DNA from: an uncultured delta proteobacterium | GTDB taxonomy: Bacteria; Desulfobacterota; Desulfuromonadia; Geobacterales; DSM-12255 | Direction: 5' to 3' | NCBI GenBank assembly: GCA_963787125.1 | Contig: CAWBBV010000001.1 | Span: forward strand, 32,001 to 96,000 | Length of the DNA: 64,000 bases | Shown here: piece after piece, positions 10,044 to 44,643 of the stretch | Numbering within the stretch: position 1 is the stretch's first letter | Layout: each line of letters opens with the position of its first letter | Notes under the pieces: generated by a model | Told to the model about the DNA's origin: nothing | Seen by the model: only the letters and a program-made list of their open reading frames with translations | The model's database searches: none | Translations under genes and position numbers: made by a program

Positions 10044-11780
10044 TTACATCCTTGACAAAACCTTGATCCAGTTCCACGGATTATGGAGTCCGGTATAGTT
10101 GGGAGTGACCTCCTTGTCAACGTTAAGCAGCTTATAAACGCCTATCTGTGCCGACTTGCATGAATAGGAAACCATAAACACCGACTCATCCGGAATTTCG
10201 GTGTACTCACCCAAAAATGCAAGATTTGTGGAACCTTCAGGGACAACCGGGGGTCTGTCCCCCGTGTTCCGGGGAAGGAACATGCTGGTGACGTAGGGGA
10301 GCATGTAGGGAACGCTGGTAGTTGTTTTCAATATTTCCGGCAATTCTTTCATGAAGCCGAATTGGTAACTCATTTCAGTCAATAACTCTTCGCCGTTGCA
10401 TTCACTCATTTTCTTCTTTACATAATCCCCTTCCCTGTCCACGTAGAGGCCATAGGCCATAAATATGGTCGTGTCTTCATCCTGATTTTTCACGAACGGC
10501 TGCCAGGGGAGATGAATAATCAGATTCCAGGGCGATTCGGTAAATATCACCATATGTTGTTCGCCGAATTTCTTGTTCTTGGTGAACTTCATGATTAAAT
10601 TCTCCAGCAGTTTTCCTCTGCTGGTCAGGTTGAATACCACGAATTTAGACTGGTCAATTTTGCTGGTGAAGTTCCCCGGATTACCAAGATCCGGCTGTTT
10701 TTTCAGGATGTTCTCCCACAGTGTCCAGGCACCATCAACCTTGGTTCTTACAGTCTCCGGAGCCTTTTCCATGGTCCCTTCCCTTGAATCGGCTGTCTTT
10801 GAGCCGATGGTGACAAAGGCAAAATCACCTTGCTTAACCGTAATCTCTTCATTTTTCCCATTCCGGATAAAATGGATCTTCTCAACCGTCTTTTCCTTGC
10901 CACCAGGCTTGAAATCGATATCCGTCACTTTGCAACCCATGTGAAAATTGACCCCCTGGTTGCCAAGCCATTTCAAGGTCGGAACTACTACCGATTCATA
11001 GGTGTTATAGGTTGTATTCCAGCCGGACTTTTCAAGGTCGGCAATGGTATCCAGATCAAAAAAATAGTTACGGAGATAGCGCCGCATTTCACTGAGGCTG
11101 TGCCAGGTATCAAAGCCGAAGATGGAAGCGAACATATGCCAGAATTTGGTTTTGAAAAATGAGGGCTGAAAGTATTCATCAATCCTTTTTCCCTGAAAAT
11201 TCTCCTCGGAGGTCAATACCAGCTTGAGAAAATCGTAGCGGTCCGCAAAGCTCAAGCGGAAGTCAGTGTGATCGATAATCAGTTGCTCTTTGCCGACCAG
11301 TCTTGTTATGGAATTAAGCTTATGGGCCGCACTAAATTCGGACATTTCATCATAAAGGTTCTTTTTGGGCTTAAAGTTATTGTACTCCTCACTGGTTTTT
11401 ACCAGTTTTTCCAGTTCGACCTGATCGTCAAGGGAGGGGATCCTGGCGAGAAAATCAAAGTAAGCCTGATGGGCAATATGATTGACAAGCCGGGCGCCAC
11501 GGGCCGCATAAGGCTTTTTCTGAGTGCCGCCCTTGGAATCCAGCGCTCCCCCCGCGACGCTCAGTTCTTCAAGGATATGGATATTTTTACCCGCAACCTT
11601 GCCGTCCTGGATTGCGTAGACTGCGGCAGAGAGTCCGGCCAGGCCGCCACCGACAATATAGATCTTGCTGTCCGGGGTTACCGGAGGGATTGTGACAGCA
11701 TTGCCACGGCTTACTGGAAGCAGAAAGATGCTCGTCAGTATAAGCGTCAGTGGAAACGTCCTTAATTTAAAGTTATTCAT
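10044..11780 (-). CDS. Oleate hydratase / myosin-cross-reactive antigen family FAD protein with putative signal peptide
   Basis: YIVGGGLAGLSAA Rossmann motif, YNTYES, MPY-like MLPYVTS..PR..GDRP.VVP.GSTNLAFLGEY C-terminal MCRA motifs. Confidence 0.85.
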   Translation of the reverse strand: MNNFKLRTFPLTLILTSIFLLPVSRGNAVTIPPVTPDSKIYIVGGGLAGLSAAVYAIQDGKVAGKNIHILEELSVAGGALDSKGGTQKKPYAARGARLVNHIAHQAYFDFLARIPSLDDQVELEKLVKTSEEYNNFKPKKNLYDEMSEFSAAHKLNSITRLVGKEQLIIDHTDFRLSFADRYDFLKLVLTSEENFQGKRIDEYFQPSFFKTKFWHMFASIFGFDTWHSLSEMRRYLRNYFFDLDTIADLEKSGWNTTYNTYESVVVPTLKWLGNQGVNFHMGCKVTDIDFKPGGKEKTVEKIHFIRNGKNEEITVKQGDFAFVTIGSKTADSREGTMEKAPETVRTKVDGAWTLWENILKKQPDLGNPGNFTSKIDQSKFVVFNLTSRGKLLENLIMKFTKNKKFGEQHMVIFTESPWNLIIHLPWQPFVKNQDEDTTIFMAYGLYVDREGDYVKKKMSECNGEELLTEMSYQFGFMKELPEILKTTTSVPYMLPYVTSMFLPRNTGDRPPVVPEGSTNLAFLGEYTEIPDESVFMVSYSCKSAQIGVYKLLNVDKEVTPNYTGLHNPWNWIKVLSRM

Positions 11781-17264: not shown

Positions 17265-20200
17265 ATGACTGTCATATTTTTTGATCTGGGCCCGGAGCAA
17301 TGGCGATTTCTCGCTGTACTGGAAGCTTTGGGGGGCACCCTTCATATTGACATTCTCGACAGCCTCGCGCCTTTGTCCGCCGGCCAACTGGTAGACATCC
17401 TGAAGAAGACTGCTGCCACAGGTACACTCATTCAGGAACAGAGCGGGCTGTTTTCTCTTGCCAATCCTCTTGCCACACCTTTGGCGAGAAAACTTGACCT
17501 GGTGAACAGGGGCGCAAGCCTCTCAGCTTTGGTGGACGTAATATATTCAGGAAAGATTGAGAACCGGCTCGACCCTCGCAGGCTCATCGCCCTTCTGGAC
17601 AGGTCAGGCAGGGATCTTGAGGCGGGCATGCTTGAATTTAGCCTTGTGGATCTGGAAAAAGAGCGCGGTTCTGATCTTGAGGTCATTCACACGCTCCTCC
17701 TGAGGGGAGTCAACCGGCTGAAGAACCTTGCCCTGGATCCTGATACAAGCTCAATTTATATTGCCCGGGCCTTGAAGCTATCCAATCTTTGCTTTGTATT
17801 GGGGCGGGGAATCGGTGAACTGGACGAAATCCTTGACACCGCCCAGCTGTTGGCAACCAGGCTGGGCGACAAACGTTCCCAGGCCCTGATCAATCTCAAT
17901 GTGGGGATGCTTTACTATTTTACCGGCCGGAGGGGGGAAGCCTTTTTAGTGTTGTCAGTTGGACTGGAAAAAGTCAACGAGCTGGGGGATGAGGATATCC
18001 TCTCCCAGTCCGCCGAATATATTGCCATTTTTTATTTTATGAAAGGTCAGTTCCGGGAGGTTATGAAGCACCTGGAGCATCTGGAAAATCTCATCGACTT
18101 TAATGTTGAGACTATTCAGACCATGACCTATATAGTTTTCAGCTACAGCGCTCTCTATCTGGGCCAGTTCCATCGCGCCTTCGGCTTCCTTGATTCAAAT
18201 CTCCGCATTGCCGAAGAGAACTCCAATAAGGCTCTGGCTTCTGTCTTGAGGAGCGTCCTCGGTACGACGCTGATACTGGTAAAAAGATACAGTGAAGCAG
18301 AACTCCATCTCAACCGGGCCAGACAAGAGTCACTCGATTGCGACAATGCCTTCGGCTACCACTATTCCGGCGGCGGCCTTGCCTTTCTCTATTTCACAAC
18401 TGGAGATTTAAGTAAAAGTTACGCGATCTACAAGGACACCGTGGAAAAGGTGATGCAGGCCGGACTGCTGCAGCAGTATTCATCCCCCTGGATTCTGGAA
18501 ATCTTTCACGAATTTCATCGCCGGGGATTCGAGCCCCTTCCGTACTGGAATTACCTCGACAACATGGAAATGACATTGAACGGAGTCAATGTTCAACTGA
18601 GGGGTGTGGCGTTACGGCTTAAGGTTCAGGACCGGATTGATCAGGGATTCAGGGAAAAGGGGCCGTTACTCGCCGACCTTGAGGCCAGCAGGACCTGTCT
18701 TGAAATCTCAGGGAACAATATGCAACTGGCTAAGACAGTCCTGGAGATTGCCCATCTGGAACTACTCCATAACAATAAGGACGCAGCACGGGGGTATGCC
18801 CAGGAAGCATGGCGTCTGTTCGGTGGCCATGCAGATGACTTTTTCCCTGATCAGTACAAGTTGCTGCTGGAGAAAAAACAGTTTTCTCCCGATCAACAAT
18901 CAGCCAGAAACGATTATCTCAGTCGCTACTTTGAGGAGATGGCAGCGATCAAAACCAGCCAGGGGCAGGAAGAGACGTTGAGCAAAGCGATTATCTCAAC
19001 GAACCGGTTTTTTGGCGCCGAACGTGGCGGCATCTTCTGGTTTGCCGACGGCAATTTCACCAGAAGCCCTGAACTCCGGGCGGTAAGCAATCTGACCAAA
19101 GAGGAGGTTGAGTCACCCCGCTTTAAACCATGCCTGGAACACGTATTCAAAGCCTTCCGTACCAAAAAGCCTCTGGTCGTCAGGAATGATCCAGTGGAGA
19201 CAGCAATGAAGGGCGAGAAGACCCGCTCCGTCCTCTGTTTGCCTTTTGAGGTTCAGGGAATGACTCGTGGCGTCATCTACCACGATAATTCGTACATGCA
19301 GGATGCTTTCGATTTCCTCGATCCGGCGATGATGGCATTTCTGGCCCGTCACACATCTGACATAATAGATTCCCTGCTGAACACCATGAAGATCAAGGAT
19401 GAAAAGGAGAAACTCTCACGGGAGCGGGTCACCTGTCAGCAGGCGTATAATAAACTGCAGCTTATCGCCGGGTCACAGGTCATGCGGGATCAGCTTGCCA
19501 TGGCCGGGCAGGTCGCTGCGACCGGTTCGAACGTGCTTCTTCTCGGGGAGACCGGAACAGGTAAAGGGGTGTTTGCCCGCTGGGTTCATGAAAACAGCCC
19601 GCGAACTAATGGTCCATTTATTGAGGTGGACTGTACGACAATTCCGGAGAATCTGGTGGAGAGCGAACTGTTCGGCTATGAGAAGGGAGCCTTTACCGGA
19701 GCGGTCAATCAGAAGCTCGGCAGGGTCGAGCTGGCGCATAACGGGACACTTTTTCTTGACGAAATCGGCGAGCTGCCGCTACATCTCCAGACCAAACTCT
19801 TAAAGACATTGGAGGAAAAAACCTTTGTCAGGATCGGGGGTGGACGGGTCATCAAGTCGGACTTCCGTCTGATTGCAGCCACCAACCGCAACCTGAAGAA
19901 TGAGGTCAGTATTGGTCGTTTCCGGGAGGATCTCTACTATCGACTTAATGTTTTCCCGCTGTCCATTCCCCCATTGAGAGAGCGAGCTGAGGATATTATT
20001 GAGCTGGCGAGGTATTTTGTTGAGTTCTACGCCAGAAAAAACGGCAGGACCGGCCTGGAACTTTCACGCGAAGACCTGAAGATCCTGCTGAATTATTCCT
20101 GGCCGGGCAATGTCAGGGAACTGCAAAATGTAATCGAAAGAGCAATTATTCTGGCAAAAGGCGACAAGCTGCTGATTCCCCTGTTTCCCACAGGCGCAGA

Positions 20201-20411
20201 GTCGGATTCCAGGGGAATCTTCGCTGACTTGCCAACGCTGGATGAGCTGCAACGATGCTACATCCTGCACGTATTCGAGCATACCAAAGGGAAGGTGAGT
20301 GGCCCTGGTGGAGCTGCTGACATCCTTGGCATGAAGCGGACAAGCCTTTACTCCCGAATGAGATCGCTGGATATGGATTTCAAGGGAAAAGGGAGCATAA
20401 ATGGAGAGTAG
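17265..20411 (+). CDS. Sigma-54-dependent enhancer-binding protein with long helical (TPR-like) N-terminus and GAF domain
   Basis: GETGTGK Walker A, ELFGYEKGAFTGA, LFLDEIGE, FREDLYYRLNV, WPGNVRELQN, C-terminal Fis-type HTH. Confidence 0.95.
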   Translation: MTVIFFDLGPEQWRFLAVLEALGGTLHIDILDSLAPLSAGQLVDILKKTAATGTLIQEQSGLFSLANPLATPLARKLDLVNRGASLSALVDVIYSGKIENRLDPRRLIALLDRSGRDLEAGMLEFSLVDLEKERGSDLEVIHTLLLRGVNRLKNLALDPDTSSIYIARALKLSNLCFVLGRGIGELDEILDTAQLLATRLGDKRSQALINLNVGMLYYFTGRRGEAFLVLSVGLEKVNELGDEDILSQSAEYIAIFYFMKGQFREVMKHLEHLENLIDFNVETIQTMTYIVFSYSALYLGQFHRAFGFLDSNLRIAEENSNKALASVLRSVLGTTLILVKRYSEAELHLNRARQESLDCDNAFGYHYSGGGLAFLYFTTGDLSKSYAIYKDTVEKVMQAGLLQQYSSPWILEIFHEFHRRGFEPLPYWNYLDNMEMTLNGVNVQLRGVALRLKVQDRIDQGFREKGPLLADLEASRTCLEISGNNMQLAKTVLEIAHLELLHNNKDAARGYAQEAWRLFGGHADDFFPDQYKLLLEKKQFSPDQQSARNDYLSRYFEEMAAIKTSQGQEETLSKAIISTNRFFGAERGGIFWFADGNFTRSPELRAVSNLTKEEVESPRFKPCLEHVFKAFRTKKPLVVRNDPVETAMKGEKTRSVLCLPFEVQGMTRGVIYHDNSYMQDAFDFLDPAMMAFLARHTSDIIDSLLNTMKIKDEKEKLSRERVTCQQAYNKLQLIAGSQVMRDQLAMAGQVAATGSNVLLLGETGTGKGVFARWVHENSPRTNGPFIEVDCTTIPENLVESELFGYEKGAFTGAVNQKLGRVELAHNGTLFLDEIGELPLHLQTKLLKTLEEKTFVRIGGGRVIKSDFRLIAATNRNLKNEVSIGRFREDLYYRLNVFPLSIPPLRERAEDIIELARYFVEFYARKNGRTGLELSREDLKILLNYSWPGNVRELQNVIERAIILAKGDKLLIPLFPTGAESDSRGIFADLPTLDELQRCYILHVFEHTKGKVSGPGGAADILGMKRTSLYSRMRSLDMDFKGKGSINGE

Positions 20412-20609
20412 CCAGGGCCATGAATTTATTTCGTTGCATGAATGGAAAATATTATCCGCTCGGCGGAGATCAGTGCAGCCGGGTTTTTTAACTGCCTGAA
20501 ATCGGGAAAATAGATTGAATTCAGTTATACTTATAAGGCTAATTTGGGTCAGTTGTTTTAATTAGAAATTAAGGCCATCCTTGCGGCGGTCAGCAGCAGA
20601 GGCAACAGC

Positions 20610-23600
20610 GTGGGCAGATTAGCCATAATCCTGACATATTGCATCTTTTTTCTCTCCGGAGCAGCAGCCCTGATCTATGAAATAGTCTGGAGCCGTTACT
20701 TGAGCCTTGTTTTCGGCGGCTCGCACCTGGCTGTTACCACCGTGCTTACGGTGTTTATGGGGGGTCTGGCTCTGGGCAGTTACTTAATCGGCAGACGCGT
20801 CGATCGCTCTCACCAACTACTGCGGCTTTATGGTTGTCTGGAACTGGGGGTCGCAGCTGCAGCCCTGCTGTTTGTCGGCCTTTTGCAAATCTATCCGCCG
20901 ATCTATATCAAGCTTGCCCAACTGGTTCCTGAATCCACCCTCTACCTCTCCGCTATTCGCATCACCTTTGCCGTCATTGCCCTGATCATCCCCACAACCC
21001 TTATGGGCGGTACTCTTCCGGTTCTAACGGCATTCACAGCCCGCCTTTTGAGCGGTCCGGGGGTGCGCCTCTCCTTCCTCTACGGCTGCAATACCCTCGG
21101 CGCTGTCTGCGGTGCCGCGGCAACCGGTTTTGTCATGCTGCGCAGCTTTTCCATGGGTATAACCCTGGCTACCGCGGTGGGAATAAATATCTGCGTCGGT
21201 TTGGCCGCTTTTGCCCTGCAACGACTGGTAACAACGGCACCGGCTGCAGAGGCAGCAGCGGAAACGGCCATGGCAAGAGACGATCTCGATTCGGTTTCAA
21301 CGGGGCCTTTGCCTTTCAGGCTGGTACTCTGGGGTATCGGTGTGAGCGGTTTTTGTGCCATGGGGTATGAGGTTCTCTGGAACAGAATTCTGAGCATTGC
21401 CGTTGGCGCCAGCGCCTACGGCTTCACCCTGCTGCTCATGGCCTTTCTTTCTGGCATCGGCCTTGGGAGTGCCGCTTATGGCTTCCTGGGCAGGATCTCC
21501 ACCAGACTGCGCCGCCGGCCTCTCTCCTTGCGCACTGCTGTTACCGCCTTCGGCGCGGTCCAGCTGACAATAGGTCTGACAGCTTTTTTGGCAACGGTGC
21601 AGTTTCGCTATCTCCCTACCTATGTGGCGTTTCTGCATGATTACTTTCTTGCCCTCTTCCCCAAAGTTGATCAGTTCCAGGTAATACAGCTGGCCAATTT
21701 TGTGCTCGCCTTTGCCATCATGTTTATCCCGGCTTTTTTCATGGGGGTGGCCTTTCCCCTTGCCGGAGAGATCCACAGCCGCTGCCGCAGACAGGTCGGC
21801 GCTGCTGTTGGTGAGCTGCTCTCCTTCAACACAGTGGGAGCCATTCTCGGCGCCGGGGTCAGCGGATTTCTCCTTATCTACCTGCTCGGCATCCAGCGCT
21901 CGCTGCAGATCCTTATCCTGATCAACAGCGGCTACGGCCTGCTGCTGATAGTTGCTGCCAAAGGCGACAAAACCCGGCTGCGGCTGGCAATGCTGCTTGC
22001 TTTGGCCGCACTCATGGTGCCGATTGCCGCCCCTGCCGGGTGGCAGCTCTGGGATCCGAAGCTTTATGCCGTCTACCAGTCCAATAAACCCGAAGCCTAC
22101 GGAACTCCTGAAGAGGTCAGCGAGATGCTGGCCAATCTTGACGTCCGTTATTACAGTGAAGGGTCACAGGCCATTGTCAGCGCCGTCCAGTCGGCAGATA
22201 CGCTCTTTTTTATCACCAACGGCAGGGTGGAGGCTTCCAACACCCACCAGGACATGCAGTGCCAGTATGTCCTCGGTCATCTGCCCATGCTGCTCCACAA
22301 AAAGCCGCGGCAGGTCTTTGTTCTTGGTACCGGCAGCGGCATGACCCTGGGGGCGGTTTCGGTGCATCCAGGCGTGGAGAAGATAACCCTGGCTGAAATT
22401 GAGCCGGGGGTGCTGGGTGTGGCCAGGGTCTTCGGCATAGACAATCACTACATCCTCAACAAACCCGACCCGCGGCTGAAAGTTGTTTTCAACGATGGCC
22501 GTAACCACCTGCTGACGACCAAAGACCGCTTCGACGTCATTACCGCCGATCCGGTCCACCCCTGGTTTAGTGGCGCCGGTTATCTTTATTCAACCGAATA
22601 TTTCCGCCTTGCCAGCCAGCGGCTCAATCCCGGCGGCATTATCTGTCAATGGCTCCCCCTATATGAGCTGACTGCCGAGAATCTGCAATCGGTGGTCAGA
22701 ACAATCCGTGAAAACTTCGCCTATACCATGATCTGGGTAACCCACTACGATGCCGAGATTATTGCCAGCAACTCACCTATAATCATCGACGAAGAAGAGC
22801 TGGGGCGGCGTTTTGCAGTTGCAGGCATTGCCGAAGACCTGCGCCAGATCAGGATGGGGAGCCCGGAAGACTTCCTCAGTTATTTTGTTATGGGGAGTGA
22901 AGGCGCCAAAGCTTACAGCCGGGAAGGGCGGATTAATACCGACGATAATCTCTATCTGGAGTTCTCCGCTCCCCGCAGCATCGGCCTGGAGTATCTGCGG
23001 GGTGCCAACCTGGCAGGTCTTCTCCGGCACCGGGAGAAGCTGCTCCCTTACCTGCGCCGCCCGGTGAGCTCCCCGGCCGGCAACCTTCAGACGGCCCGCT
23101 GGGAGGCTAATCATCAGGCAGCGCTGCTGGAAGACAAAGTCCATCTGCTTGATGTCGCCGGCAAGCAGATGACTTACCAGTATACGGACATTGCCACCGA
23201 ACTTGACAATCGCTACCCCCGTTATGCGCCGTGGCGTTTCACCAAAGAGGAGTCGGGTGATGAAAGAGGCGGGGGCACAACTGTTTTGCAGGAATTGGAA
23301 ATTCCCTTGCTGGATGAGCATGAAGCGCCGCTGAAAGGGGCATTAATGGCGGTTCTCGTCCGCAAGAACAGTCGCCAGGCGCGGATTTTTTTCGTTGACG
23401 ATAACACCCGGACAGTCTTCGGCAAGCTGCGGGTAAAGGGATCGGGAAAAGACGCCTACATAGAGAAATTCGTTGCGACTGTTATGCAGGATGCCAAGAA
23501 AATCTACGCTGCCGAGGCGGCACAGGCGACAGCCACCGGGAAGATTGCCCCCTCAATGCTGACCGTATTTCCGAAGATTAAAACGCTGGTGGAGGCCAGG

Positions 23601-23615
23601 ATAGATCGGGAGTAA
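20610..23615 (+). CDS. Fused membrane (MFS-like)/spermidine synthase family protein
   Basis: FFLSGAAALIYEIVW N-terminus with many TM segments, then VLGTGSGMT, AEIEP, NDGRNHL, FDVITADP aminopropyltransferase-fold motifs. Confidence 0.9.
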   Translation: MGRLAIILTYCIFFLSGAAALIYEIVWSRYLSLVFGGSHLAVTTVLTVFMGGLALGSYLIGRRVDRSHQLLRLYGCLELGVAAAALLFVGLLQIYPPIYIKLAQLVPESTLYLSAIRITFAVIALIIPTTLMGGTLPVLTAFTARLLSGPGVRLSFLYGCNTLGAVCGAAATGFVMLRSFSMGITLATAVGINICVGLAAFALQRLVTTAPAAEAAAETAMARDDLDSVSTGPLPFRLVLWGIGVSGFCAMGYEVLWNRILSIAVGASAYGFTLLLMAFLSGIGLGSAAYGFLGRISTRLRRRPLSLRTAVTAFGAVQLTIGLTAFLATVQFRYLPTYVAFLHDYFLALFPKVDQFQVIQLANFVLAFAIMFIPAFFMGVAFPLAGEIHSRCRRQVGAAVGELLSFNTVGAILGAGVSGFLLIYLLGIQRSLQILILINSGYGLLLIVAAKGDKTRLRLAMLLALAALMVPIAAPAGWQLWDPKLYAVYQSNKPEAYGTPEEVSEMLANLDVRYYSEGSQAIVSAVQSADTLFFITNGRVEASNTHQDMQCQYVLGHLPMLLHKKPRQVFVLGTGSGMTLGAVSVHPGVEKITLAEIEPGVLGVARVFGIDNHYILNKPDPRLKVVFNDGRNHLLTTKDRFDVITADPVHPWFSGAGYLYSTEYFRLASQRLNPGGIICQWLPLYELTAENLQSVVRTIRENFAYTMIWVTHYDAEIIASNSPIIIDEEELGRRFAVAGIAEDLRQIRMGSPEDFLSYFVMGSEGAKAYSREGRINTDDNLYLEFSAPRSIGLEYLRGANLAGLLRHREKLLPYLRRPVSSPAGNLQTARWEANHQAALLEDKVHLLDVAGKQMTYQYTDIATELDNRYPRYAPWRFTKEESGDERGGGTTVLQELEIPLLDEHEAPLKGALMAVLVRKNSRQARIFFVDDNTRTVFGKLRVKGSGKDAYIEKFVATVMQDAKKIYAAEAAQATATGKIAPSMLTVFPKIKTLVEARIDRE
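23572..23615 (+). repeat. Direct repeat copy 1 (3' end of spermidine-synthase gene), left island boundary
   Basis: CGAAGATTAAAACGCTGGTGGAGGCCAGGATAGATCGGGAGTAA; 40/44 identical to 36782-36824. Confidence 0.9.
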
Positions 23616-23670
23616 GTGCTGGCGGTCGGGAGTTTATGGGCGGCAGACGGGAGTCAAAGCAGGAATGAGT

Positions 23671-24867
23671 TCACGTCAACGCCCGACGCTGCCTTTTCAG
23701 ATATCCGGCAAATCTCCCAATGCTGCCGTATCTGTGCAGAAGCAGGACGATCAGCTTCAAGCGGAGCTGCCATGGCGGGCTGCTCTGTTCAAGGGGAAAG
23801 CGGAGTTTCACCCCGTCAGCCGAGAACGCATCCAGTGTATGAGCAAGCAGGCGCTTTCCTCCTTCAAGACGGCTTTTTCTTCCGGACACGTCGAACGAGA
23901 CAAGCTTTGCAAAATGTCTGCTCACCTCAGCGTCATCTTTTGGCGTCAGCGGCGTATCAACACCAAACAGCTCACCTGTTGCAAAGAGAAAAGCATTCAC
24001 CGGCAGCAAAATCCCGTTATCCCTGCAGAACTTTTCGATCTCACGCCAATCGGCTGAAGTCCCGTAACGTCTGCAGAGCCAGGCGAAATGGAGCATCTGC
24101 TTCAGATCCAGCATACGCAGCTTGTAGTTTTCGTGGGATATTTCCGAGTGGAGGATGCAGTGGAGCAGTTGATGGCTTGGCGACATGGCAGCAAAGGAGA
24201 GCCCGTCACTCTCCCCCATGGCGCATGTTTGCCAGACATCACGGCTCGCCAGCAGCTGGAGATCACGTACCTCAAAGAGATCCCGGTGAAGCTCCAGGTG
24301 CACCGGCATCCCCTCCCTGACAAGGGGGGCATAATGCTTTGCCTTCCCGTTTTTCCAGAGCGCCACCATTTCCACATAGCTATCCGGGACGATATAACCT
24401 TCTGTTAAAAGCAGGGCGACAGCTTCGTCAGCCCGGCTCTCCGGAACGAGCAGGTCGATATCCATCATGAACCTGTCACCCAGATTCCCGTAAAGCCCGG
24501 TCAAAAGGGCTGCGCCACCCTTGAGGGGCATGGCAGGAATTCCGGCGCTGGCAAGGGTAGCGATAATTTCTTTCAGCTGACCAAGAATTGCTGCGTTGCG
24601 CTCCAGGTTCAGTTGATGCATTGCCTCCAGATACTCAAGAAACTGCTCTGGAAGGAGATTCTGCACCCCCTTGGCAAACACTGCGCTGTAAAGGGCTGGA
24701 GCAAGATTGGCGCAGTTGGCGAGAAAAGCTACCGCTTCCCAGTCGATCCGGTGGCTGTCATGCCCGGTGCAGAGCGGTTTAACAGCCGCTTCGTCCGTAA
24801 AGGGGGATAGTAGCTGGCATAGCAGAAGAAGAGACTGCGGAACCTTAATGCGTGCGGCAACGCTCAC
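23671..24867 (-). CDS. Nucleotidyltransferase family protein (NTP_transf_5-like)
   Basis: PLKGGAAL...R.MMDIDLLVP, LELH, DW motifs typical of RiPP/lasso-associated NTases; start overlaps kinase stop. Confidence 0.85.
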   Translation of the reverse strand: MSVAARIKVPQSLLLLCQLLSPFTDEAAVKPLCTGHDSHRIDWEAVAFLANCANLAPALYSAVFAKGVQNLLPEQFLEYLEAMHQLNLERNAAILGQLKEIIATLASAGIPAMPLKGGAALLTGLYGNLGDRFMMDIDLLVPESRADEAVALLLTEGYIVPDSYVEMVALWKNGKAKHYAPLVREGMPVHLELHRDLFEVRDLQLLASRDVWQTCAMGESDGLSFAAMSPSHQLLHCILHSEISHENYKLRMLDLKQMLHFAWLCRRYGTSADWREIEKFCRDNGILLPVNAFLFATGELFGVDTPLTPKDDAEVSRHFAKLVSFDVSGRKSRLEGGKRLLAHTLDAFSADGVKLRFPLEQSSPPWQLRLKLIVLLLHRYGSIGRFAGYLKRQRRALT

Positions 24868-26048
24868 TTCATCACCCCAGTCCCCTCCAGCAGCGTCAAC
24901 CCCTCGGCGGTCGATGCGTAGGTCAGGGCGTAGCGGTCAAGAGCCGCCAGCCAGTCGATGATGGCACTGACCCGCGTCTCATCAAGATCCGGGAGCTGAT
25001 AACCGGCGTCAAGGATTCTGCTCAGGCTCTGAACGATGCTCAGCCGCTGCGTTGTCCCACTGGTTCCTGCAATGAACTCGGGGAAGATGAGCGCATTGGC
25101 GTGGCAGCTGCTGCCGTTTTGGGCAAAGCGGATTGAGTCCGGCAGGAGGTACCTGATCCTCTGGCCGTCAAAGCGGATATGATCCTGACTGGTCGCCAGT
25201 AGTGGAAAGTCGGGGAGGATTACCGGCCAGCTCCCCTCCTTGATCCCCGGGGCAAGGGGCATGGCAAAAATAGAGCCGTCAGTAGCATCAATCACCAGCG
25301 GCTCATCGCTGACAAGCCCGTAACCTCTTGCAAGGAGCGCCATGGCAAAGGTGCTCTTACCCGCCCCGGATCTACCGGCAAGGAGCAGGCTCCTGCCGTC
25401 AGAACCGCAGACAGCGCTGCCGTGGATGGTGAGCAGATGGGGCTGCTTTTGGTAGGCAAAAACCCGCAGCTGCCCGTAAATGTTTGGCAGAAGCCGCTTC
25501 GCAGCCAGAGGCTCACCGCTCTCCTTACCATTCATCAGAATCTGCCAGACATCCCCTGCCGCCTCAATCGTGACGACAAGCTTCACTGTGTCAGCGGTTG
25601 CTCCAAGAAAGGGGGCGATAAACGGCGTGATCCAGCGCTGCAACAGCTCTTCGTCACCAACAATGGTAAAAACCGTATTAAGCAGAGAGTAGCAGGGGAA
25701 CTCATCAGAAAGGGGAAACTCGCACTGCGGTGAGTTCAGGTAATCGGGGTATTCGCCATCCAGCGGCTCGCTCCCTGCCAGAATGGCGGCCAGTTCCATA
25801 ACCCCCGGCAGCGACTCTTCTGGCAGTTGTAGATCCATGGCAAGATCATGGACGCTCTCCCCCTGCTCAAGGCGCAGCAGCACCACGGTAGCTGTCCGGT
25901 CAAGGCCGTAAAGCTTTTTGCTTTGCTTTGAAAAAAGCACTGACTCTTCCCCCAGAAGGAAAAGAGTCAGGCTATTGTTAAGTGATAATTTTTCACAGAC
26001 GGGCAGAGAAATTTTACAGCCCCCCTGAATCAGACGGAGTTGATGCAC
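24864..26048 (-). CDS. PqqD/RRE-like N-terminal domain fused to HPr-kinase-like P-loop kinase
   Basis: ESVLFSKQSKKLYGLDRTATVVLLRL (RRE-like); IHGSAV, GRSGAGKST, LVSDE (HprK-like). Start uncertain: GTG 26048 or in-frame ATT 26012, 7 nt after a G-rich RBS. Confidence 0.8.
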   Translation of the reverse strand: MHQLRLIQGGCKISLPVCEKLSLNNSLTLFLLGEESVLFSKQSKKLYGLDRTATVVLLRLEQGESVHDLAMDLQLPEESLPGVMELAAILAGSEPLDGEYPDYLNSPQCEFPLSDEFPCYSLLNTVFTIVGDEELLQRWITPFIAPFLGATADTVKLVVTIEAAGDVWQILMNGKESGEPLAAKRLLPNIYGQLRVFAYQKQPHLLTIHGSAVCGSDGRSLLLAGRSGAGKSTFAMALLARGYGLVSDEPLVIDATDGSIFAMPLAPGIKEGSWPVILPDFPLLATSQDHIRFDGQRIRYLLPDSIRFAQNGSSCHANALIFPEFIAGTSGTTQRLSIVQSLSRILDAGYQLPDLDETRVSAIIDWLAALDRYALTYASTAEGLTLLEGTGVMK

Positions 26049-26211
26049 ACGCCCTCTTTGCCGTAGTTGGCGACATCAACAGATAAACCCCAACCGCACT
26101 CCCGACGGCATATTTGCCAAAGCGCTTGATGAACTCCCGCCGCACCATTTCAGGGGATTTCTCAGCATCAGCCCCTTCTGTTTTACTGTTTTCATTCGCT
26201 TCAATCATCAC
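26014..26211 (-). CDS. 65-aa putative precursor peptide with twin-arginine-like leader
   Basis: GGAGG RBS; RREFIK, hydrophobic stretch, A-C-A then short Ser/Thr-rich tail STPSDSGGL; directly upstream of RRE-kinase. Confidence 0.75.
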   Translation of the reverse strand: MMIEANENSKTEGADAEKSPEMVRREFIKRFGKYAVGSAVGVYLLMSPTTAKRACASTPSDSGGL

Positions 26212-26219
26212 AGATCCTC

Positions 26220-26615
26220 CTATTTTGCCACATCACTTCGGATAGCAGGTTTTTTGACAGCTTGCTTCATGGTTACAGTCACAGGTGTGGACAATCCCCC
26301 TACGAAACCATCCCTTTTAGCGGCAACCGCAAAGGTGAGCTGCTCTGCGCTGCCAGTTTCAGTAAAAAGGTAATCAGTCTGCGACCCGTGGAGGTCAATC
26401 CAGCGGGAATCAGGAAGCAGCCTGTCCCCGCTCTCAAAATATACCCGGTAACTCGCACCTAGTCTTACCGGCCTCCAGGAAAGCATAACCCCGTCACCCG
26501 TTTGTACCCCTTTGAGCGCAGTAACTTTCTCAGATCCGTGCCTGTGCCCAAACGGAGACGCAAACAGACTGGTTGCCGTGAAGATCATCAATATTGTTAA
26601 AATCAATTTTTTCAT
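26220..26615 (-). CDS. Secreted single FN3-like domain protein
   Basis: Sec signal MKKLILTILMIFTATSLFA; VMLSW...A.YRVY...TDY...LTFAVAA FN3 pattern. Confidence 0.7.
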   Translation of the reverse strand: MKKLILTILMIFTATSLFASPFGHRHGSEKVTALKGVQTGDGVMLSWRPVRLGASYRVYFESGDRLLPDSRWIDLHGSQTDYLFTETGSAEQLTFAVAAKRDGFVGGLSTPVTVTMKQAVKKPAIRSDVAK

Positions 26616-26632
26616 CTACCCCTCCGGTAAAG

Positions 26633-27496
26633 CTAGTTGTTGATTACAGTTTTGAGTCTTCTGCCTTCCTGATCGTAATAGGTGAGGCCGGGATTGCCGG
26701 GGATAAGCAGTGAAACCCCTGAACTGCCACGGGCAGCGTCAACATCGGTTTTGATATAGAACCTGACCACCAGTTCGGCAACAGCACTGTTTGGGGTGTA
26801 ATCCCAGCTGAAGTAGAACTTTTTGGTACGGCTGCCGTTGAATGCCCAGTCTCCGGCTACTGAGGAGAGCGGAAGCAGACTGCCTGATGTGGCAAGCTTT
26901 TCACCATAGCTGTTGCCGCAACTGCCAGCAGCTTTGCCGCTGCAATCAAAGATGGCAACCTCGGAGAGGTAGCTGGCATCATACCCCTCCAGAGTCCAGG
27001 AAATGGTGGCCTGGTTATTTCTCGTCATGACAGGAACCGTTGCTGCGGCAAGCACAGCCGGCATCCGCTGCTGCGCCTCTGCAAGCGGGGCGGCACTGTT
27101 GGTCAGCCAAGCGGTAAGCACCGGCGTATTTGTGGAGCTGGATGACACCTGCAACAGCGCACTCTTTGTCCCCTGGCTGGCAGGTTTGAAACTGACTGAA
27201 ACCGTGCAGCTAGCGTGGGCCGCCAGAGTGCCGGTGCAACTGTGCGGATGAAGGTCAAACTCTGCCGGATTTATCCCGGCAAGGGCAATACCGCTTACGT
27301 TCATGGCTGTCCCGGTAAGATTTGTAATGGTAAAATCCACCGGTGTTGAATCATTTCCAAGGGCTGTCACCGGAAACTGCCTCACCGCCGGATAGATGGC
27401 GATCTGGCTGTCCTGAACAACATCGGCTGCCGATGCCGGAGTGACAGATGCGTTGCAACTGAATATCAGAAATGCTGCAAGAATATACTTTTTCAT
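26633..27496 (-). CDS. Secreted protein: choice-of-anchor-D/ASH-like Ig domain plus C-terminal domain shared with upstream adhesin
   Basis: Sec signal; FTITN.G...C...LA...SCTVSVSFKP...G.KSA.L motif; C-terminal half aligns by eye to adhesin C-terminus. Confidence 0.8.
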   Translation of the reverse strand: MKKYILAAFLIFSCNASVTPASAADVVQDSQIAIYPAVRQFPVTALGNDSTPVDFTITNLTGTAMNVSGIALAGINPAEFDLHPHSCTGTLAAHASCTVSVSFKPASQGTKSALLQVSSSSTNTPVLTAWLTNSAAPLAEAQQRMPAVLAAATVPVMTRNNQATISWTLEGYDASYLSEVAIFDCSGKAAGSCGNSYGEKLATSGSLLPLSSVAGDWAFNGSRTKKFYFSWDYTPNSAVAELVVRFYIKTDVDAARGSSGVSLLIPGNPGLTYYDQEGRRLKTVINN

Positions 27497-27507
27497 AGTT
27501 CTCTCCT

Positions 27508-30500
27508 TTACGGTGCAACCGCATGCTTCAGCCGTCTGCCGCTGAGGTCGTAGTATTCAGTGCCTGATTGCAGCAGGTTCCCAGGGATCAGGAGCGAAAG
27601 GCTCCCTTTTCCGGCGGCATCGTCTGCTGCGGTTTTACGGTAGAAGCGGATGACCATGTCAGTTGCCGATGCCGGAGCCGTGAAGGTGTAACTGTAGTTG
27701 AACTGATTTGAGGTAACACCGTTATAACTCCAGCTGCTTGCGTTTGTGCTGACGGCCGGGAGATTTCCCGAGTCGGAAAAATTGCTGGCAAAGCTGTCAC
27801 CGCAGGTTCCGGCTGGAACCCCTGCACAGTTGAACAGCGCAATCCGTGAGAGGTAATCGTCGTCATAGCCAAGCAGCGACCAGGTGATGGTGTACTGCTG
27901 ACCGGGTTGGATCGTGGTTGGAATATTCAGTGCTGAAAGCACCGACGGAATCCGTCTGGCGGCCTCCTCCTGAAGCGTCTCATGGTTATAAAGGAATGCT
28001 GTGACTGTCATGCCGTCATGGGGGATCTCAAGCTGGGCTGATTTTGACCCCTGGGTAGCAGCACCCGGACAGAACTTGACGCCAACTGTACAGCTTGCGC
28101 CAGCGGCAACTGCCTGGCTTGAGCAGTTATCCCCCGAAATTGTGTACTCGGCAGCATCATTCCCCCCTTTGCCCACAGTGCCAAAGGTAACGGAAGCAGC
28201 CGATCTGTTGGTGACAGTGAACGGAATCTCCCCGCTACAGCTACCTTGCGCCACCACACCAAACAGATGGCGATCAGGCGAAACTGCAATGGCGGTATCA
28301 AGGGCTGAGAGGCTGCTGATGTTGGCAGCGGCGGCAACCGTCATGGTAAAGCTCTGGTTGGCATTCCCCTGGCTGTTTGTGGCAATGATGAAAATGGCAA
28401 AACTTCCACTTACATTGGGTGTACCGGAGATGGTGGCCGTGCCGTTGCCATTGTCATGGAAGCTGACACCGGCTGGCAGAGCGCCTGTACGTTTAAGCGC
28501 AGCCGTGGGGTTGCCGGTGGCGTTTACGGTGAAGCTGCTGCCGACGCCGTAGTTCCAGCTGGCGCTGTTGGCGGATGTGATGGCAGGAGCCGCCAACGCA
28601 GCAGCAGTGGTAAAGGTCTGGTCAGCGCCATTGGTTGTGCCGGAGAGGCTGCTGGCAACGGCACGGAAATGGTACGTGGTTAAAGCTGTCAGGCCGGAGA
28701 CAGCAAGGGAGACCGGAGTATTGGTCACGCCGGAGACTGTTGCTGGCGAAGCCGCAATACAGCCGCTGCCGTAGGAGGCGGTCGCTCCATACTCGAAACA
28801 GACCGTACTGTCGGCATTATTGGCATTCACCGTCCCGTTCATGGTGGCGGCGGAGGTGGTAACGCCACTGACTGCATCGGTGGTGACGGTCGGCACAGGA
28901 ATGTAAGTAAACATGATCATCTCGCTACTTATGCCGCCTGGTGAAGTGACGACCACGCTATTGTTTGGCCCCGTGCCAGCCGGTGTGGTGAGTGTAATCT
29001 GAGAGTCACTGACAACTACAACATTCGAAGCTGCTGCTCCGCCAATGGTGACTCCGGTCGTTCCGGTGAAGCTCGTGCCGGTGATGGTTACGCTGGTTCC
29101 CCCGGCAGCAGTCCCGCTTGACGGCGAGATACCGGTAATGACCGGAACCTCAGTTAGATCATTGATGGTAATGGTGAAGGCCTTCTCGAAGTACAGCCCA
29201 CCCTGGTCAGTGCTGCGAACCCGGACAGAGTAACTGCTCTTGACCTCATAGTTCGGGCTGTTGGTTATCCGCAGATTATCGACGCTGATATTGAAGGAGG
29301 CGTTGTCGGTGCTGCCGGTGCCGCTGACGAGGGTGTAGGTGAAGGTGTTACCTGCATCCGGGTCGGTGGTGCTCAGGGTGCCTACGGTGGAGTTGGCCGC
29401 CACGTTCTCGTCGATTGAGCTGGCAGAAAAGCTGATGTCGGTCGGGGTAGAGTTATAGGTAAACAGGCCGGCGCCAGTACCAGTGCCGCCGGGTGTGGTG
29501 ACCGCCACATCTCTGACTCCGAGCGTGCCGACTGGCGTGGTGGCCGTTATAGTGGTGGCGTTGACTACCGTTATCCCGGCGGCGGCACTGCCGCCAATGG
29601 TGACGCTCGTCGCCCCGGTGAAGTCGGTGCCGCTAATGGTGACAGTGGTTCCGCCAAGAGGAGATCCGCTGGCAGGTAGAATGCTGCTGACAGTCGGCGC
29701 AGGAATGTAGGTGAACAGGGTAGTCCCGCTACTGAAACCGCCCGGTGATTTAACGACCACACTGTTGTTTGAGCCTGTGCCAGCCGGTGTAGATAGGGTA
29801 ATCTGAGTGTCACTGACAACTATTACGTTAGTTGCTGCTGCTCCGCCAAAGGTGACTCCGGTCGTTCCGGTGAAGCTCGTGCCAGTGAGGGTTACGCTGG
29901 TTCCCCCGGCAGCGGGTCCACTTGGCTGCGAGATACTGAAAATGACCGGAGTCTCCAGCAGATCATTGATGGCGATGGCGAAGGGCTTTTCGAAGTATAA
30001 TCCGCTCTGATCGGTGCTGCGGATACGGACGGAATAGCTGTTTTTCACCTCGTAGTTGGGACTGCTCGTGATCCGCAGGCTGCTGCCGCTGATGTTGAAG
30101 GAGGCGTTGTCCGTAGATCCGGCTCCGGACACAAGGGTGTAGCTGAAGGTTCCTCCATCCGGGTCGGTGGTGCTCAGGGTGCCCACGGTGGTGTTGGCAA
30201 TGACGTTTTCGTCGATTGAGCTGGCAGACAGGGCGATGTCGGTTGGGGCTGCGTTGCATGCTCCGGTCGTGAAGGTGGCATCCGAGCCGTTGCTGGTGCC
30301 ACCGGTGCTGATCCCTTTAGCCCGGAAGTGGTAGGTGGTGTTGCAGGTTAGTCCCGACACAGCTGCCGAGACCGCTGTATTCGAAGCGCCGCTAACCGGG
30401 CTCTGGCTGGCGGTTATTGAACTGCCATAACCGGTGGTCAACCCGTAGTCGAAGGTAACGGTGCTACTGTAGCCGTTGGCGTTAACCGTGCCGTTCAGGG

Positions 30501-32091
30501 TCGTGCCGGTGGATGTGATGCTTGTTGCCGTGCCGGTAGTGGCAGTAGGAGGATTCGTGGTAGTCACTGATACGGTGTTGGTGTAGTACGTATGATGCAA
30601 GCCGCTGTACCCGCGAACCCGGTAATAATAAGTCGTTCCTGCGCTGAGCCCTGTCACGGAGTAGGTAAGCAGATTCCCCACATCCAGACCCCGATACCCG
30701 GTAACCATGGCTGTAAACGCTGTATCAGTGGCCACATCCAGCAAGTACCCGGTTGCGCCGGTCACTGTGTTCCAGTTGGCACTGAACCCGCTTCCGGTTA
30801 TGCCCGAGGCGGCTGTGGCCACCGGCAATGTCCCCAGGTATTCGGTGGCGCCTTTTTCGGACGTCGCACCGGCGCGTAGATAGCCGCGCCCATCCACAAA
30901 CACACTGCCGTTGCTACTAACCGGGTTAATCGCCAGGCTGCCTGCATTGGGCAAATGAGATGAGACATACCCGCCGTTTCCGACCAGGTTGGCCAGGCTG
31001 GCGTTTTGCGGGAACCCTTCGGTTCCCCGTACGTCGCCGGTGCCCCAGGTATAATAGGCGTCATTACTTCCTACGGAACCGATCAGATTGTAGCCGCCGG
31101 ATATAAACGTAAAAGTGATTCCTCCTGAATAGAGACCGGTTGGGTCAAAATAAATATCCGAATCTCCTCCGCCCGTGGTTGCAACGTTCCCGGCCACCAC
31201 CGTATTTTTCAGCGTAAAAGTGCCGCCCGGCGTCGGAATGCCTGAATTATTATACACCGAGAGCCCTGCTTCCCAGGAATTGCTGCCATTAGTGGAATAA
31301 TTCTTGGTAATGGTGCAATTGATCACGTTGAAGCTGCTGTTGCCAAAATGGGCAACCACGCCCTGATTGTCCGAAGTGTTACCCGAAAAGGTACAGCCTT
31401 CCAGGGTTACGACTTTCCCAACGGAACGTTCATGCAATGCACCTCCCTGGTAAGCCGAATTACCTTCAAACGTACTGTCCACTACGGTCAGGGTGCCCAG
31501 GTTATCAATGGCCCCGCCGTACCCCTGTCCAGGAGGGAGATTAGGACCCATAGGTACTGAATTCTGGTAAAAATAGGAACGCAGAACTGTGAGGGTGGCT
31601 GTTGCTGCCACACTAATGCCTCCTCCGTAGGTACTACTCATTGAGTGATTGAGCGAACAATTGTTGATCTTGCAGCGGTCCAGGGTCAAATTGGCTAATC
31701 CGCCCAGGCGAATTCCTGCTCCGGTCTCCGAAGCCACGGCGCTCCGTCCGTTGCTGATGGTAAGGTCAGAAATGGTGATTGTCCCGGCAGTAATGTCAAA
31801 CACGCGCACCGCATTGTTACCGTTAATAGTAAGGCTGGCAACGCCCGGACCTTTGATGGAAAGGTTTTTAGCGATGGATAACGTTGAGGAGAGGGTAATG
31901 GTTGCCGGATAGGTGAGGTTGAACACAACCGTATCACCCGCCGTAGCATTGGTGATGGCTAGACGCAGACTGCCCGCACCGGAATCTGCCGTAGAGGAGA
32001 CCGTTTGGGTTGCCGAAAAAGCAGGAAGAGCGAGCCCTCCCAAGAGCATACTGACCATTAGACTCAATTTAACCCATTTCAGCAGATTCAT
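27508..32091 (-). CDS. Large Ser/Thr/Gly-rich surface adhesin (beta-helix/choice-of-anchor-Q-like, FN3, cadherin-like, IPT/TIG, Ig, ASH domains)
   Basis: GAGGGG RBS, ATG 32091, Sec signal; DSGAGSLR.AI, F.GN.A..GGA repeats, FN3 (GLSAGTTYYYRVR), cadherin (PTDI.LS...DEN...DPD...NYE), three IPT/TIG repeats. Confidence 0.88.
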   Translation of the reverse strand: MNLLKWVKLSLMVSMLLGGLALPAFSATQTVSSTADSGAGSLRLAITNATAGDTVVFNLTYPATITLSSTLSIAKNLSIKGPGVASLTINGNNAVRVFDITAGTITISDLTISNGRSAVASETGAGIRLGGLANLTLDRCKINNCSLNHSMSSTYGGGISVAATATLTVLRSYFYQNSVPMGPNLPPGQGYGGAIDNLGTLTVVDSTFEGNSAYQGGALHERSVGKVVTLEGCTFSGNTSDNQGVVAHFGNSSFNVINCTITKNYSTNGSNSWEAGLSVYNNSGIPTPGGTFTLKNTVVAGNVATTGGGDSDIYFDPTGLYSGGITFTFISGGYNLIGSVGSNDAYYTWGTGDVRGTEGFPQNASLANLVGNGGYVSSHLPNAGSLAINPVSSNGSVFVDGRGYLRAGATSEKGATEYLGTLPVATAASGITGSGFSANWNTVTGATGYLLDVATDTAFTAMVTGYRGLDVGNLLTYSVTGLSAGTTYYYRVRGYSGLHHTYYTNTVSVTTTNPPTATTGTATSITSTGTTLNGTVNANGYSSTVTFDYGLTTGYGSSITASQSPVSGASNTAVSAAVSGLTCNTTYHFRAKGISTGGTSNGSDATFTTGACNAAPTDIALSASSIDENVIANTTVGTLSTTDPDGGTFSYTLVSGAGSTDNASFNISGSSLRITSSPNYEVKNSYSVRIRSTDQSGLYFEKPFAIAINDLLETPVIFSISQPSGPAAGGTSVTLTGTSFTGTTGVTFGGAAATNVIVVSDTQITLSTPAGTGSNNSVVVKSPGGFSSGTTLFTYIPAPTVSSILPASGSPLGGTTVTISGTDFTGATSVTIGGSAAAGITVVNATTITATTPVGTLGVRDVAVTTPGGTGTGAGLFTYNSTPTDISFSASSIDENVAANSTVGTLSTTDPDAGNTFTYTLVSGTGSTDNASFNISVDNLRITNSPNYEVKSSYSVRVRSTDQGGLYFEKAFTITINDLTEVPVITGISPSSGTAAGGTSVTITGTSFTGTTGVTIGGAAASNVVVVSDSQITLTTPAGTGPNNSVVVTSPGGISSEMIMFTYIPVPTVTTDAVSGVTTSAATMNGTVNANNADSTVCFEYGATASYGSGCIAASPATVSGVTNTPVSLAVSGLTALTTYHFRAVASSLSGTTNGADQTFTTAAALAAPAITSANSASWNYGVGSSFTVNATGNPTAALKRTGALPAGVSFHDNGNGTATISGTPNVSGSFAIFIIATNSQGNANQSFTMTVAAAANISSLSALDTAIAVSPDRHLFGVVAQGSCSGEIPFTVTNRSAASVTFGTVGKGGNDAAEYTISGDNCSSQAVAAGASCTVGVKFCPGAATQGSKSAQLEIPHDGMTVTAFLYNHETLQEEAARRIPSVLSALNIPTTIQPGQQYTITWSLLGYDDDYLSRIALFNCAGVPAGTCGDSFASNFSDSGNLPAVSTNASSWSYNGVTSNQFNYSYTFTAPASATDMVIRFYRKTAADDAAGKGSLSLLIPGNLLQSGTEYYDLSGRRLKHAVAP
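28897..30249 (-). repeat. Internal duplication of cadherin-like + IPT module in adhesin gene
   Basis: Copies at ~29701-30249 and ~28897-29448 with long identical DNA runs. Confidence 0.85.
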
Positions 32092-32239
32092 TTTCCCCTC
32101 CGGATTTTCCGAATACGTCTGGTCACCGATATCTTCCTGACTGACCGTGTAATGCCTTGAATTAGTTAGGTTTAATTTCATGAGACAGAGGCGTCTGAAG
32201 GGGGTAGAGAAGAGATCTCTCCCTCCAGACAGAAATCAC

Positions 32240-41346: not shown

Positions 41347-41379
41347 GCAATTACGCTATTATTGCAAATGTGGAGATTT

Positions 41380-41955: not shown

Positions 41956-41960
41956 ACGTC

Positions 41961-44542: not shown

Positions 44543-44643
44543 TTTATGGTGTGGATCCATATCGAGGTAATGCTCGCAATGGTAATGAGAGACTGACCAT
44601 TCCGTGGAGATGCACGAGATGGTTTAGATGATGGAGGATTGCA

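Follow-up and report, generated by a model that had tools for sequence, protein, structure and literature searches.

Three adjoining minus-strand genes in the genome of an uncultured delta proteobacterium (Desulfobacterota, Geobacterales; GenBank assembly GCA_963787125.1) encode a short peptide whose leader resembles a twin-arginine translocation (Tat) signal, a kinase related to HprK, and a nucleotidyltransferase (NTase). They lie in a stretch of 64,000 nucleotides of contig CAWBBV010000001.1 (positions 32,001 to 96,000), which as a whole is called the window below. The kinase carries at its N terminus the fold of a recognition element (RRE) for ribosomally synthesized and posttranslationally modified peptides (RiPPs). 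We are fairly confident that the three genes form a module of precursor, kinase, and NTase, and the peptide is, judging from the pairing of such peptides with such kinases, very probably the substrate of the kinase. The best explanation overall, to which we give somewhat better than an even chance, is a RiPP module of the type that makes linear polyphosphorylated peptides (LPPs), with export by the Tat system and signal peptidase I.

The window had been described in an earlier note, made from its letters. The three open reading frames (ORFs) and the layout of the peptide that the note gave (RREFIK, a hydrophobic stretch, A-C-A, and a tail of nine residues) agree with the ORF list, and its further claims are taken up with the evidence that bears on them.

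The RRE-Fused Kinase

In family searches the window kinase matches Hpr_kinase_C (E = 6.9e-6) and, over residues 35–73, PqqD (E = 0.008). Its best-scoring kinase family is TIGR04352 (HprK_rel_A), matched over residues 171–388 with 76.1 bits, under the cut-off of 200. The RRE that the earlier note had placed at the N terminus is borne out in its fold by a profile comparison with PDB sequences, by structure prediction, and by two structural searches. The profile, built from 32 kinases, found HprK with its kinase part (1ko7, E = 1.1e-5) and, with positions 6–84, the lasso RREs TbiB1 (E = 7.2e-4) and TfuB1 (E = 0.023). The AlphaFold2 model of the kinase has a mean predicted local distance difference test (pLDDT) score of 92.4, rising above 95 in the RRE part, where strands (residues 19–49) are followed by helices (51–90); residues 1–11 are disordered. 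Foldseek returned PEPCK and HprK/P for the whole model; for the N-terminal domain folded alone (pLDDT 78.9) the top six matches were all TbiB1 or TfuB1 (probability 0.99–1.0, E 0.01–0.02). When the same domain was compared by VIA-align with 48,161 chains, the four best matches were the RREs of CteB, TfuB1, TbiB1, and TigE (Z 6.0–6.8), and PqqD itself scored 4.6; these Z values are middling, yet the top of the list consists exclusively of RiPP RREs.

The catalytic residues of the enzyme are intact. Besides the P-loop, H209, G230, K231, D248, and K270 are invariant among the 32 aligned kinases, and S227, G228, S232, and T233 are nearly so. A HMMER search with the kinase yielded 5,530 relatives at E ≤ 0.001, 1,521 at E ≤ 1e-10, and 44 at E ≤ 1e-30. 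The best 150 are mostly 370–410 residues long and align from query residue 19–30 onward, which indicates that the fusion of RRE and kinase is a large family. Three fused homologues match the PqqD model of Pfam at E values of 1e-8 to 5e-13.

The Probable Precursor Peptide

Peptide residues are numbered here from the ATG at 26208, which gives the 64-residue form held in the protein database. After 22 polar residues the leader presents R23-R24 within RREFIK, a weakly hydrophobic stretch, the basic pair K51-R52, and A53-C54-A55. Read from the sequence, these are the features of a Tat signal: a motif of the RRxF[IL]K type, a weakly hydrophobic h-region, a basic c-region, and a cleavage site of the AxA type. 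The remaining nine residues, STPSDSGGL, form the predicted core, which by analogy with the substrates of the kinases LppK and PsmK (see below) is the likely target of phosphorylation.

Twelve peptides of this design were aligned (alignment A4). They share the consensus RRxFxKxxGxxAAYxAPxxxxL, with R23 in all 12 and R24 in 11. Past the AxA-like site the tails have nothing in common, being short and Ser/Gly-rich, Cys-rich, His/Gly-rich, or Arg-rich; the combination of a conserved leader with a hypervariable core is typical of RiPP precursors. In most of the aligned peptides a Ser or Thr lies no more than four residues from the predicted AxA site; this is a reading of the alignment and not a statistic. 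Most members of the leader family are 56–113 residues long with very short tails; members with the same leader in loci L192 and L193 reach 185–212 residues.

Databases hold little that resembles the peptide. A word search of the protein database returned one match, the peptide itself, and an alignment search with the peptide family returned 15 proteins, all unnamed and mostly near kin of the seeds. The sole NCBIfam match of the window peptide, to TIGR02811, falls far under the cut-off, and no NCBIfam model was matched by any of 12 leader-bearing peptides and proteins scanned from beside kinases. In a protein atlas the nearest clusters are unnamed proteins of 57–63 residues, and the named neighbours, at 0.86–0.88, have Tat signals; we take this as a lead only.

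Conserved Pairing of Leader and Kinase

Nine full-length fused kinases had a usable genomic context (L022, L027, L059, L180–L184, and L188, the last six being L189–L193 and L195). Their hosts belong to the Campylobacterota, the Bacteroidota, and the window's own phylum. An ORF matching the leader profile (E < 0.01) lies within 3.5 kb of seven of these nine distant kinases, so that the expectation of the earlier note, that homologues of the peptide would be found beside homologues of the kinase, holds in other phyla as well. ORFs of the leader family also stand beside six unfused kinases (L023, L024, L030, L034, L088, and L120), and the hosts of leader-bearing loci include Planctomycetota along with the three phyla already named. 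An NTase gene follows six of the nine fused kinases and also a kinase fragment in a genome of the same genus (G001). No peptidase or transporter gene recurs in the nine neighbourhoods, which are otherwise unrelated and range from a trp operon to housekeeping and sugar genes; the modules of L027, L059, and L190 sit amid glycosyltransferase and sugar genes.

The arrangement at the window locus goes beyond chance, and the leader profile is selective. Among the 41,141 ORFs of the window's own genome, the window peptide was the single match at E < 0.01 (next best, E = 0.27), and the ordinary Tat substrates of that genome scored no better than E = 0.57. Searched against other whole genomes, the A4 profile gave two matches in G274, where both kinases have one next to them, and a single match, adjacent to the kinase, in each of G329 and G096; in G254 one match was likewise adjacent. 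The probable role of the peptide as substrate follows from these two findings together, namely ORFs of the same design beside distant kinases and a leader profile that, in most of the genomes tested, matches only ORFs adjacent to kinases.

A wider count of Tat-like ORFs by distance from the kinase gave 51 of 101 loci at 1 kb or less, 29 of 78 at 1–2 kb, 13 of 74 at 2–3 kb, and 15 of 56 at 3–4 kb. Sphingomonad loci with kinases of TIGR04352 (L025–L066 and others, e.g., L050:3949–4422) have conserved proteins of 135–180 residues upstream, which carry plain Tat-type signals and match no NCBIfam model.

One planctomycete locus (L030:509–4772) encodes a VKOR-thioredoxin fusion, an NTase-SET fusion, an 89-residue precursor with a Cys-rich core, a discrete PqqD protein, and a kinase.

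The Nucleotidyltransferase

The third gene product scores 142 bits against PF14907 (cut-off 31.2), and its catalytic motif is intact: D136-x-D138 is invariant in 10 aligned NTases, as are K116, G117, R132, H194, and H240. Compared with PDB sequences, the NTase gave no usable match. The earlier note had raised the possibility that the peptide is nucleotidylated, and here the published record points elsewhere. The only tested relative in the family, PsmN, described as an "uncharacterized NTP transferase", is needed for the addition of one or two hexoses to the phosphate that the HprK-type kinase PsmK places on the C-terminal Ser of the lasso peptide pseudomycoidin, and its D134A/D136A variant is inactive (PMC6993621). 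The counterpart in LPP clusters, LppN, was inactive in a heterologous test host (PMC13381572). By analogy with PsmN, the window enzyme probably adds a hexose rather than a nucleotide; nucleotide addition is possible, though without precedent.

The genome has a second PF14907 gene, on contig C6 (L020, 7585–12851), in a polysaccharide locus (GT2, Bac_transf) beside a DDE transposase.

Relation to Known Systems

The closest described system is that of the LPPs of Bacillota, reported in May 2026, which comprises the precursor LppA, the kinase LppK, the discrete RRE protein LppB, the SipW-like peptidase LppS, the MsbA-like pump LppD, and the NTP transferase LppN; LppK places up to four phosphates on Ser3 of a linear core (Popov et al., Nat Commun 2026, PMC13381572). 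The window module resembles it in several ways. The precursor is linear, its leader being conserved and its core variable; the kinase is HprK-like and is accompanied by an RRE and by an NTP transferase of the PF14907 type; and a macrolactam cyclase is lacking. A lasso cluster is present elsewhere in the genome, as it is in many LPP hosts. It differs in several respects. Its RRE is fused to the kinase, whereas that of LPP clusters is discrete; it has neither a SipW-like peptidase, in the whole genome, nor an MsbA-like exporter, in the module, whereas LPP clusters have both; its leader is Tat-like, whereas that of LPPs follows YxxPxVLxHQxIxFETxxS; and its relatives live in Gram-negative phyla rather than in Bacillota. 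Part of the LPP motif, YxxPx[VIL], does occur in 7 of the 12 aligned leaders, within the h-region, but the rest of it is missing. A motif of this type is what the RREs of lasso, PQQ, and LPP systems bind, and the available portions of the article call LPPs and paeninodins restricted to Bacillota and make no mention of fused kinases, Gram-negative hosts, or twin-arginine motifs (PMC13381572). Two of the relatives, L022 and L027, resemble the window, whose RRE has the weakest PqqD score, in combining a degenerate leader motif with the lack of a Pfam PqqD match at 1e-5; in this very small sample, that hints at covariation between leader motif and PqqD score.

The paeninodin and pseudomycoidin systems (with PadeK, and with PsmK and PsmN, respectively) resemble the window module in having an HprK-family kinase, which in them acts on a Ser of a ribosomal peptide, and a PF14907-like enzyme with a catalytic DxD; unlike them, the window locus has no cyclase, B1 or B2 protein, or ATP-binding cassette (ABC) exporter. 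The earlier note had pointed to the lack of a lasso cyclase, a transglutaminase-like protease, and a radical SAM enzyme, and this extends to the entire window: genome-wide searches with Asn_synthase, Transglut_core3, and Radical_SAM place none of them there (C1:32001–96000). A lasso reading of the locus was rejected; the cyclase and the B2 protease are found on contig C20 only. That contig holds a full paeninodin-like lasso cluster (L019, 3312–10703, minus strand) with an Asn-synthase-like cyclase, two HprK-like kinases, a sulfotransferase, a PqqD protein (B1), a transglutaminase-like B2, an ABC exporter, and a candidate lasso precursor at 10473–10703 with W-S-A-P-T-L. The window kinase shares approximately 35% identity with the kinases of that cluster, over just about 90 residues.

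NCBIfam recognizes an "HPr-rel-A system" consisting of HprK-related kinase A (TIGR04352) and a PqqD family peptide chaperone (TIGR04353). Its sphingomonad members, which score over the cut-off (one with 232 bits), also have Tat-like neighbours, as noted above; the window kinase differs in scoring only 76 bits against the cut-off of 200 and in having the PqqD part fused. The Tat signal-binding chaperones, or redox enzyme maturation proteins (REMPs), such as TorD and DmsD, are alike by analogy alone, in that a Tat signal may stay bound to a cytoplasmic protein for as long as its cargo is incomplete. REMPs are unrelated in structure, their clients are cofactor enzymes, and no modifying enzyme is fused to them. 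Literature searches found no paper in the library searched naming "HprK-related kinase" or "HPr-rel-A" and none joining "twin-arginine", "RiPP recognition element", and "precursor peptide", and a looser search was equally without relevant result.

The earlier note had suggested a class of linear phosphopeptides. The module is most likely of that kind, but the class itself is already in print as the LPPs (PMC13381572), and the window locus is a variant of the LPP and HPr-rel-A systems. What sets it apart is the fusion of RRE and kinase, the Tat-like leader, and the absence of a dedicated peptidase and exporter.

Proposed Mechanism and Alternatives

We present the following scheme as the best explanation of the module. 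The RRE would hold the 55-residue leader of the 64-residue precursor while the kinase places one or more phosphates on a Ser near the start of the core, both steps being modelled on LppK and PsmK. The phosphate would then receive a further group from the PF14907 enzyme; on the example of PsmN, this group is most likely a hexose. Export of the modified peptide and removal of its leader would fall to the general Tat translocase and signal peptidase I, and the product would be a nine-residue phospho(glyco)peptide released outside the cytoplasm.

We propose the Tat route on two grounds: the module itself supplies neither a peptidase nor an exporter, and its leader shows every feature expected of a Tat signal. 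The wider count given above, in which Tat-like ORFs are most frequent within 1 kb of the kinase, also speaks in its favour. The earlier note had proposed that Tat export and a signal peptidase take the place of a dedicated protease and transporter; none is present in the module, no ABC exporter was found among the window genes scanned (8800–46708) or in the nine related neighbourhoods, and the genome, which is 99.96% complete, has no match to the SipW-type peptidase (TIGR02228). A signal peptidase of the LepB type is present, and TatC is found in this genome and in all five of the other host genomes. On the sequence of the leader, export and cleavage of the peptide by Tat and LepB has, in our estimate, slightly less than an even chance, and the Tat-like leader is at once the most interesting and the least proven feature of the module.

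Several observations weigh against the scheme or parts of it. TatC, which also occurs in 11 of 14 control genomes, counts for little here, and the detector of Tat-like ORFs has a high background of approximately 20%. The occurrence of YxxPx[VIL] inside the h-region means that the Tat look could in part be RRE recognition; the window leader itself lacks YxxP and YxxPx[VIL]. In L027 the arginine pair is replaced by RK. The PqqD match of the window kinase is weak. Two of the nine fused loci, L059 and L195 (5.9-kb contig), have no leader ORF, and three of the nine have no NTase. In G254 the A4 profile found two further matches that are not adjacent to a kinase (E = 2.7e-5 and 0.003), and in G001, 81% complete, it found none; the kinase there lies at a contig end and the peptide region is missing. 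The closest relatives of the kinase (P0002–P0010, metagenomic, 37–49% identity) lie outside the context survey, which covered distant loci. The NTase step is the least certain of the mechanism, as LppN was inactive in its heterologous host.

The most serious alternative, which we nonetheless consider unlikely, keeps the RiPP module as above and takes the Tat look for RRE recognition; export and cleavage, if they occur, would then depend on an unlinked protease or transporter, or the product would stay in the cell. It would account for the RRE-bound motif in the h-region of more than half of the aligned leaders, for the RK of L027, and for the failure of the leader profile to find ordinary Tat substrates of the genome, which suggests a family more specific than a Tat signal. 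Against it, the RR pair of 11 of the 12 leaders stands in a full RRxFxK context, with AxA-like sites ahead of the variable part, and the nine neighbourhoods offer no recurring peptidase or exporter gene. The Cys-rich core of L030, beside a VKOR/thioredoxin gene, points to export, and the proteins of 140–180 residues at the sphingomonad HprK_rel_A loci have plain Tat-type signals.

Such larger proteins suggest a different possibility, namely a maturation pathway for Tat-exported proteins in which a phospho(glyco)syl mark is placed on the cargo before export and the 64-residue product would count as a member of minimal size, possibly a carrier peptide or one anchored in the membrane, with ties to surface glycan or adhesin biology. 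The members of 185–212 residues with the same leader, the Tat-like proteins upstream of the sphingomonad kinases, and the three modules among glycosyltransferase and sugar genes are consistent with it, as are the secreted protein with a common unnamed domain just upstream in the window and in L022 (see below) and the location of LPP and paeninodin clusters in capsule loci (PMC13381572). We regard this pathway as improbable: most members of the leader family are of the short form, the neighbourhoods are otherwise unrelated (e.g., the trp operon and housekeeping genes), and the shared upstream domain is confined to two loci.

It is very improbable that the small ORF is incidental and that the kinase and NTase act on another target, such as the C20 lasso peptide or a polysaccharide, for although the genome has a paeninodin-like lasso cluster and a second PF14907 gene in a sugar locus, and the peptide has no close sequence relative in the protein database, that cluster has its own two kinases and RRE, similarly built peptides are found next to fused kinases in different phyla but hardly anywhere else in the genomes concerned, and the peptide ORF has a strong ribosome-binding site and is tightly coupled to its neighbours.

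Within the LPP-type scheme with Tat export, the leader might serve two purposes: it would function as a Tat signal and, in its hydrophobic region, hold the motif that the RRE binds. The RRE would mask the signal, in a manner like Tat proofreading, until the core is phosphorylated (and glycosylated), and would then free the cargo. We consider this less likely than not.

Organization of the Locus

The trio is the end of a tightly packed operon (Table 1). The overlap of the kinase and NTase genes, mentioned in the earlier note, amounts to 4 nt. A Shine-Dalgarno sequence, GGAGGA (26215–26220), lies 6 nt 5' of the peptide ATG, overlapping the upstream gene at its stop codon. The listed overlap of 35 nt between the peptide and kinase ORFs hinges on the GTG at 26048, and this start is probably wrong, since homologues of the kinase begin at query residues 17–25 and the model shows residues 1–11 as disordered; translation probably begins near residues 12–17. 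Nearby alternatives (window 26000–26048) are only the non-canonical codons ATT and CTG, just past the peptide stop, an arrangement that suggests coupling by termination and reinitiation.

Table 1. Features of the module and its operon (window coordinates)
Feature	Position	Strand	Remarks
NTase (PF14907, NTP_transf_5)	23671–24867	minus	398 residues; family name shared with PsmN and LppN
NTase catalytic D136-x-D138	24454–24462	minus	invariant in 10 aligned NTases
RRE-fused HprK-like kinase	24864–26048	minus	394 residues as listed
Kinase P-loop, GRSGAGKST	25350–25376	minus	residues 225–233
RRE (PqqD-like) domain	25773–26000	minus	residues ~17–92; four strands, then three helices
14-bp hairpin with U-rich tail	25930–25970	minus	44 nt after the peptide stop, within the conserved 5' coding part of the kinase ORF
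Peptide gene	26014–26211	minus	65 residues from GTG 26211, 64 from ATG 26208; stop 26014–26016
Predicted core, STPSDSGGL	26017–26043	minus	residues 56–64; Ser/Thr-rich
Leader	26044–26208	minus	residues 1–55
Three upstream operon genes (131-residue Fn3-like, 287-residue choice-of-anchor D, and 1557-residue repeat protein)	26220–32181	minus	gaps of 8–17 nt

The hairpin that follows the peptide gene has a z-score of -3.05, and none of 200 shuffled sequences was equally stable. The peptide genes of L027 and L023 have similar hairpins behind them, and L022 has a weaker one in that place, making 4 of 10 examined, the window included. Attenuators of this kind are seen after precursor genes, and the hairpin may be an attenuator that sets the ratio of precursor to enzymes. 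A scan of 23300–27700 for sigma-70 promoters found none, and the sigma-54 promoter pattern has a single match in the whole window, far from the module and fewer than expected by chance.

The link of the upstream operon genes to the trio is uncertain. The last ~155 residues of the 287-residue protein (26633–27496; residues 131–287) and of the 1557-residue protein (27508–32181; residues 1397–1557) are homologous, and the same unnamed domain is present in a secreted ORF of 218 residues just upstream of the L022 peptide in a campylobacterote (L022:3818–4474; BLASTP E = 7e-10). A profile of the domain found only these three proteins across all loci and the genome. The two closest systems, those of the window and L022, thus have a protein with this unnamed domain as a common fourth neighbour, which may belong to the system.

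Two other groups of genes were noted in the window. Convergent on the module (17265–23615) are genes for a 1048-residue sigma-54 activator with a long N-terminal region and then a 1001-residue fused major facilitator superfamily/spermidine-synthase protein. Farther away, at 41362–46708, is a type I restriction-modification set (S, M, a 342-residue ORF without an NCBIfam match, and S) with a DinD-like gene inserted.

Implications

This locus and its relatives place an LPP-type module in at least three Gram-negative phyla, in a form reduced to a precursor, an RRE-fused kinase, and an NTase. If the Tat route is correct, it would link the phosphorylation of peptides or proteins to the export of folded proteins. 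It would also provide a handle for genome mining, in that a Tat-like mini-ORF beside a PqqD-HprK fusion would mark a family that current RiPP tools and NCBIfam leave unnamed. If the leader does serve the two purposes suggested above, and if this extends to the wider HprK-related kinase A family, including its Tat-type neighbours of 140–210 residues, it would amount to a widespread and undescribed phospho(glyco)sylation of Tat cargo before export in Gram-negative bacteria, and to the first RiPP family in which Tat and signal peptidase I replace a peptidase and pump of its own.

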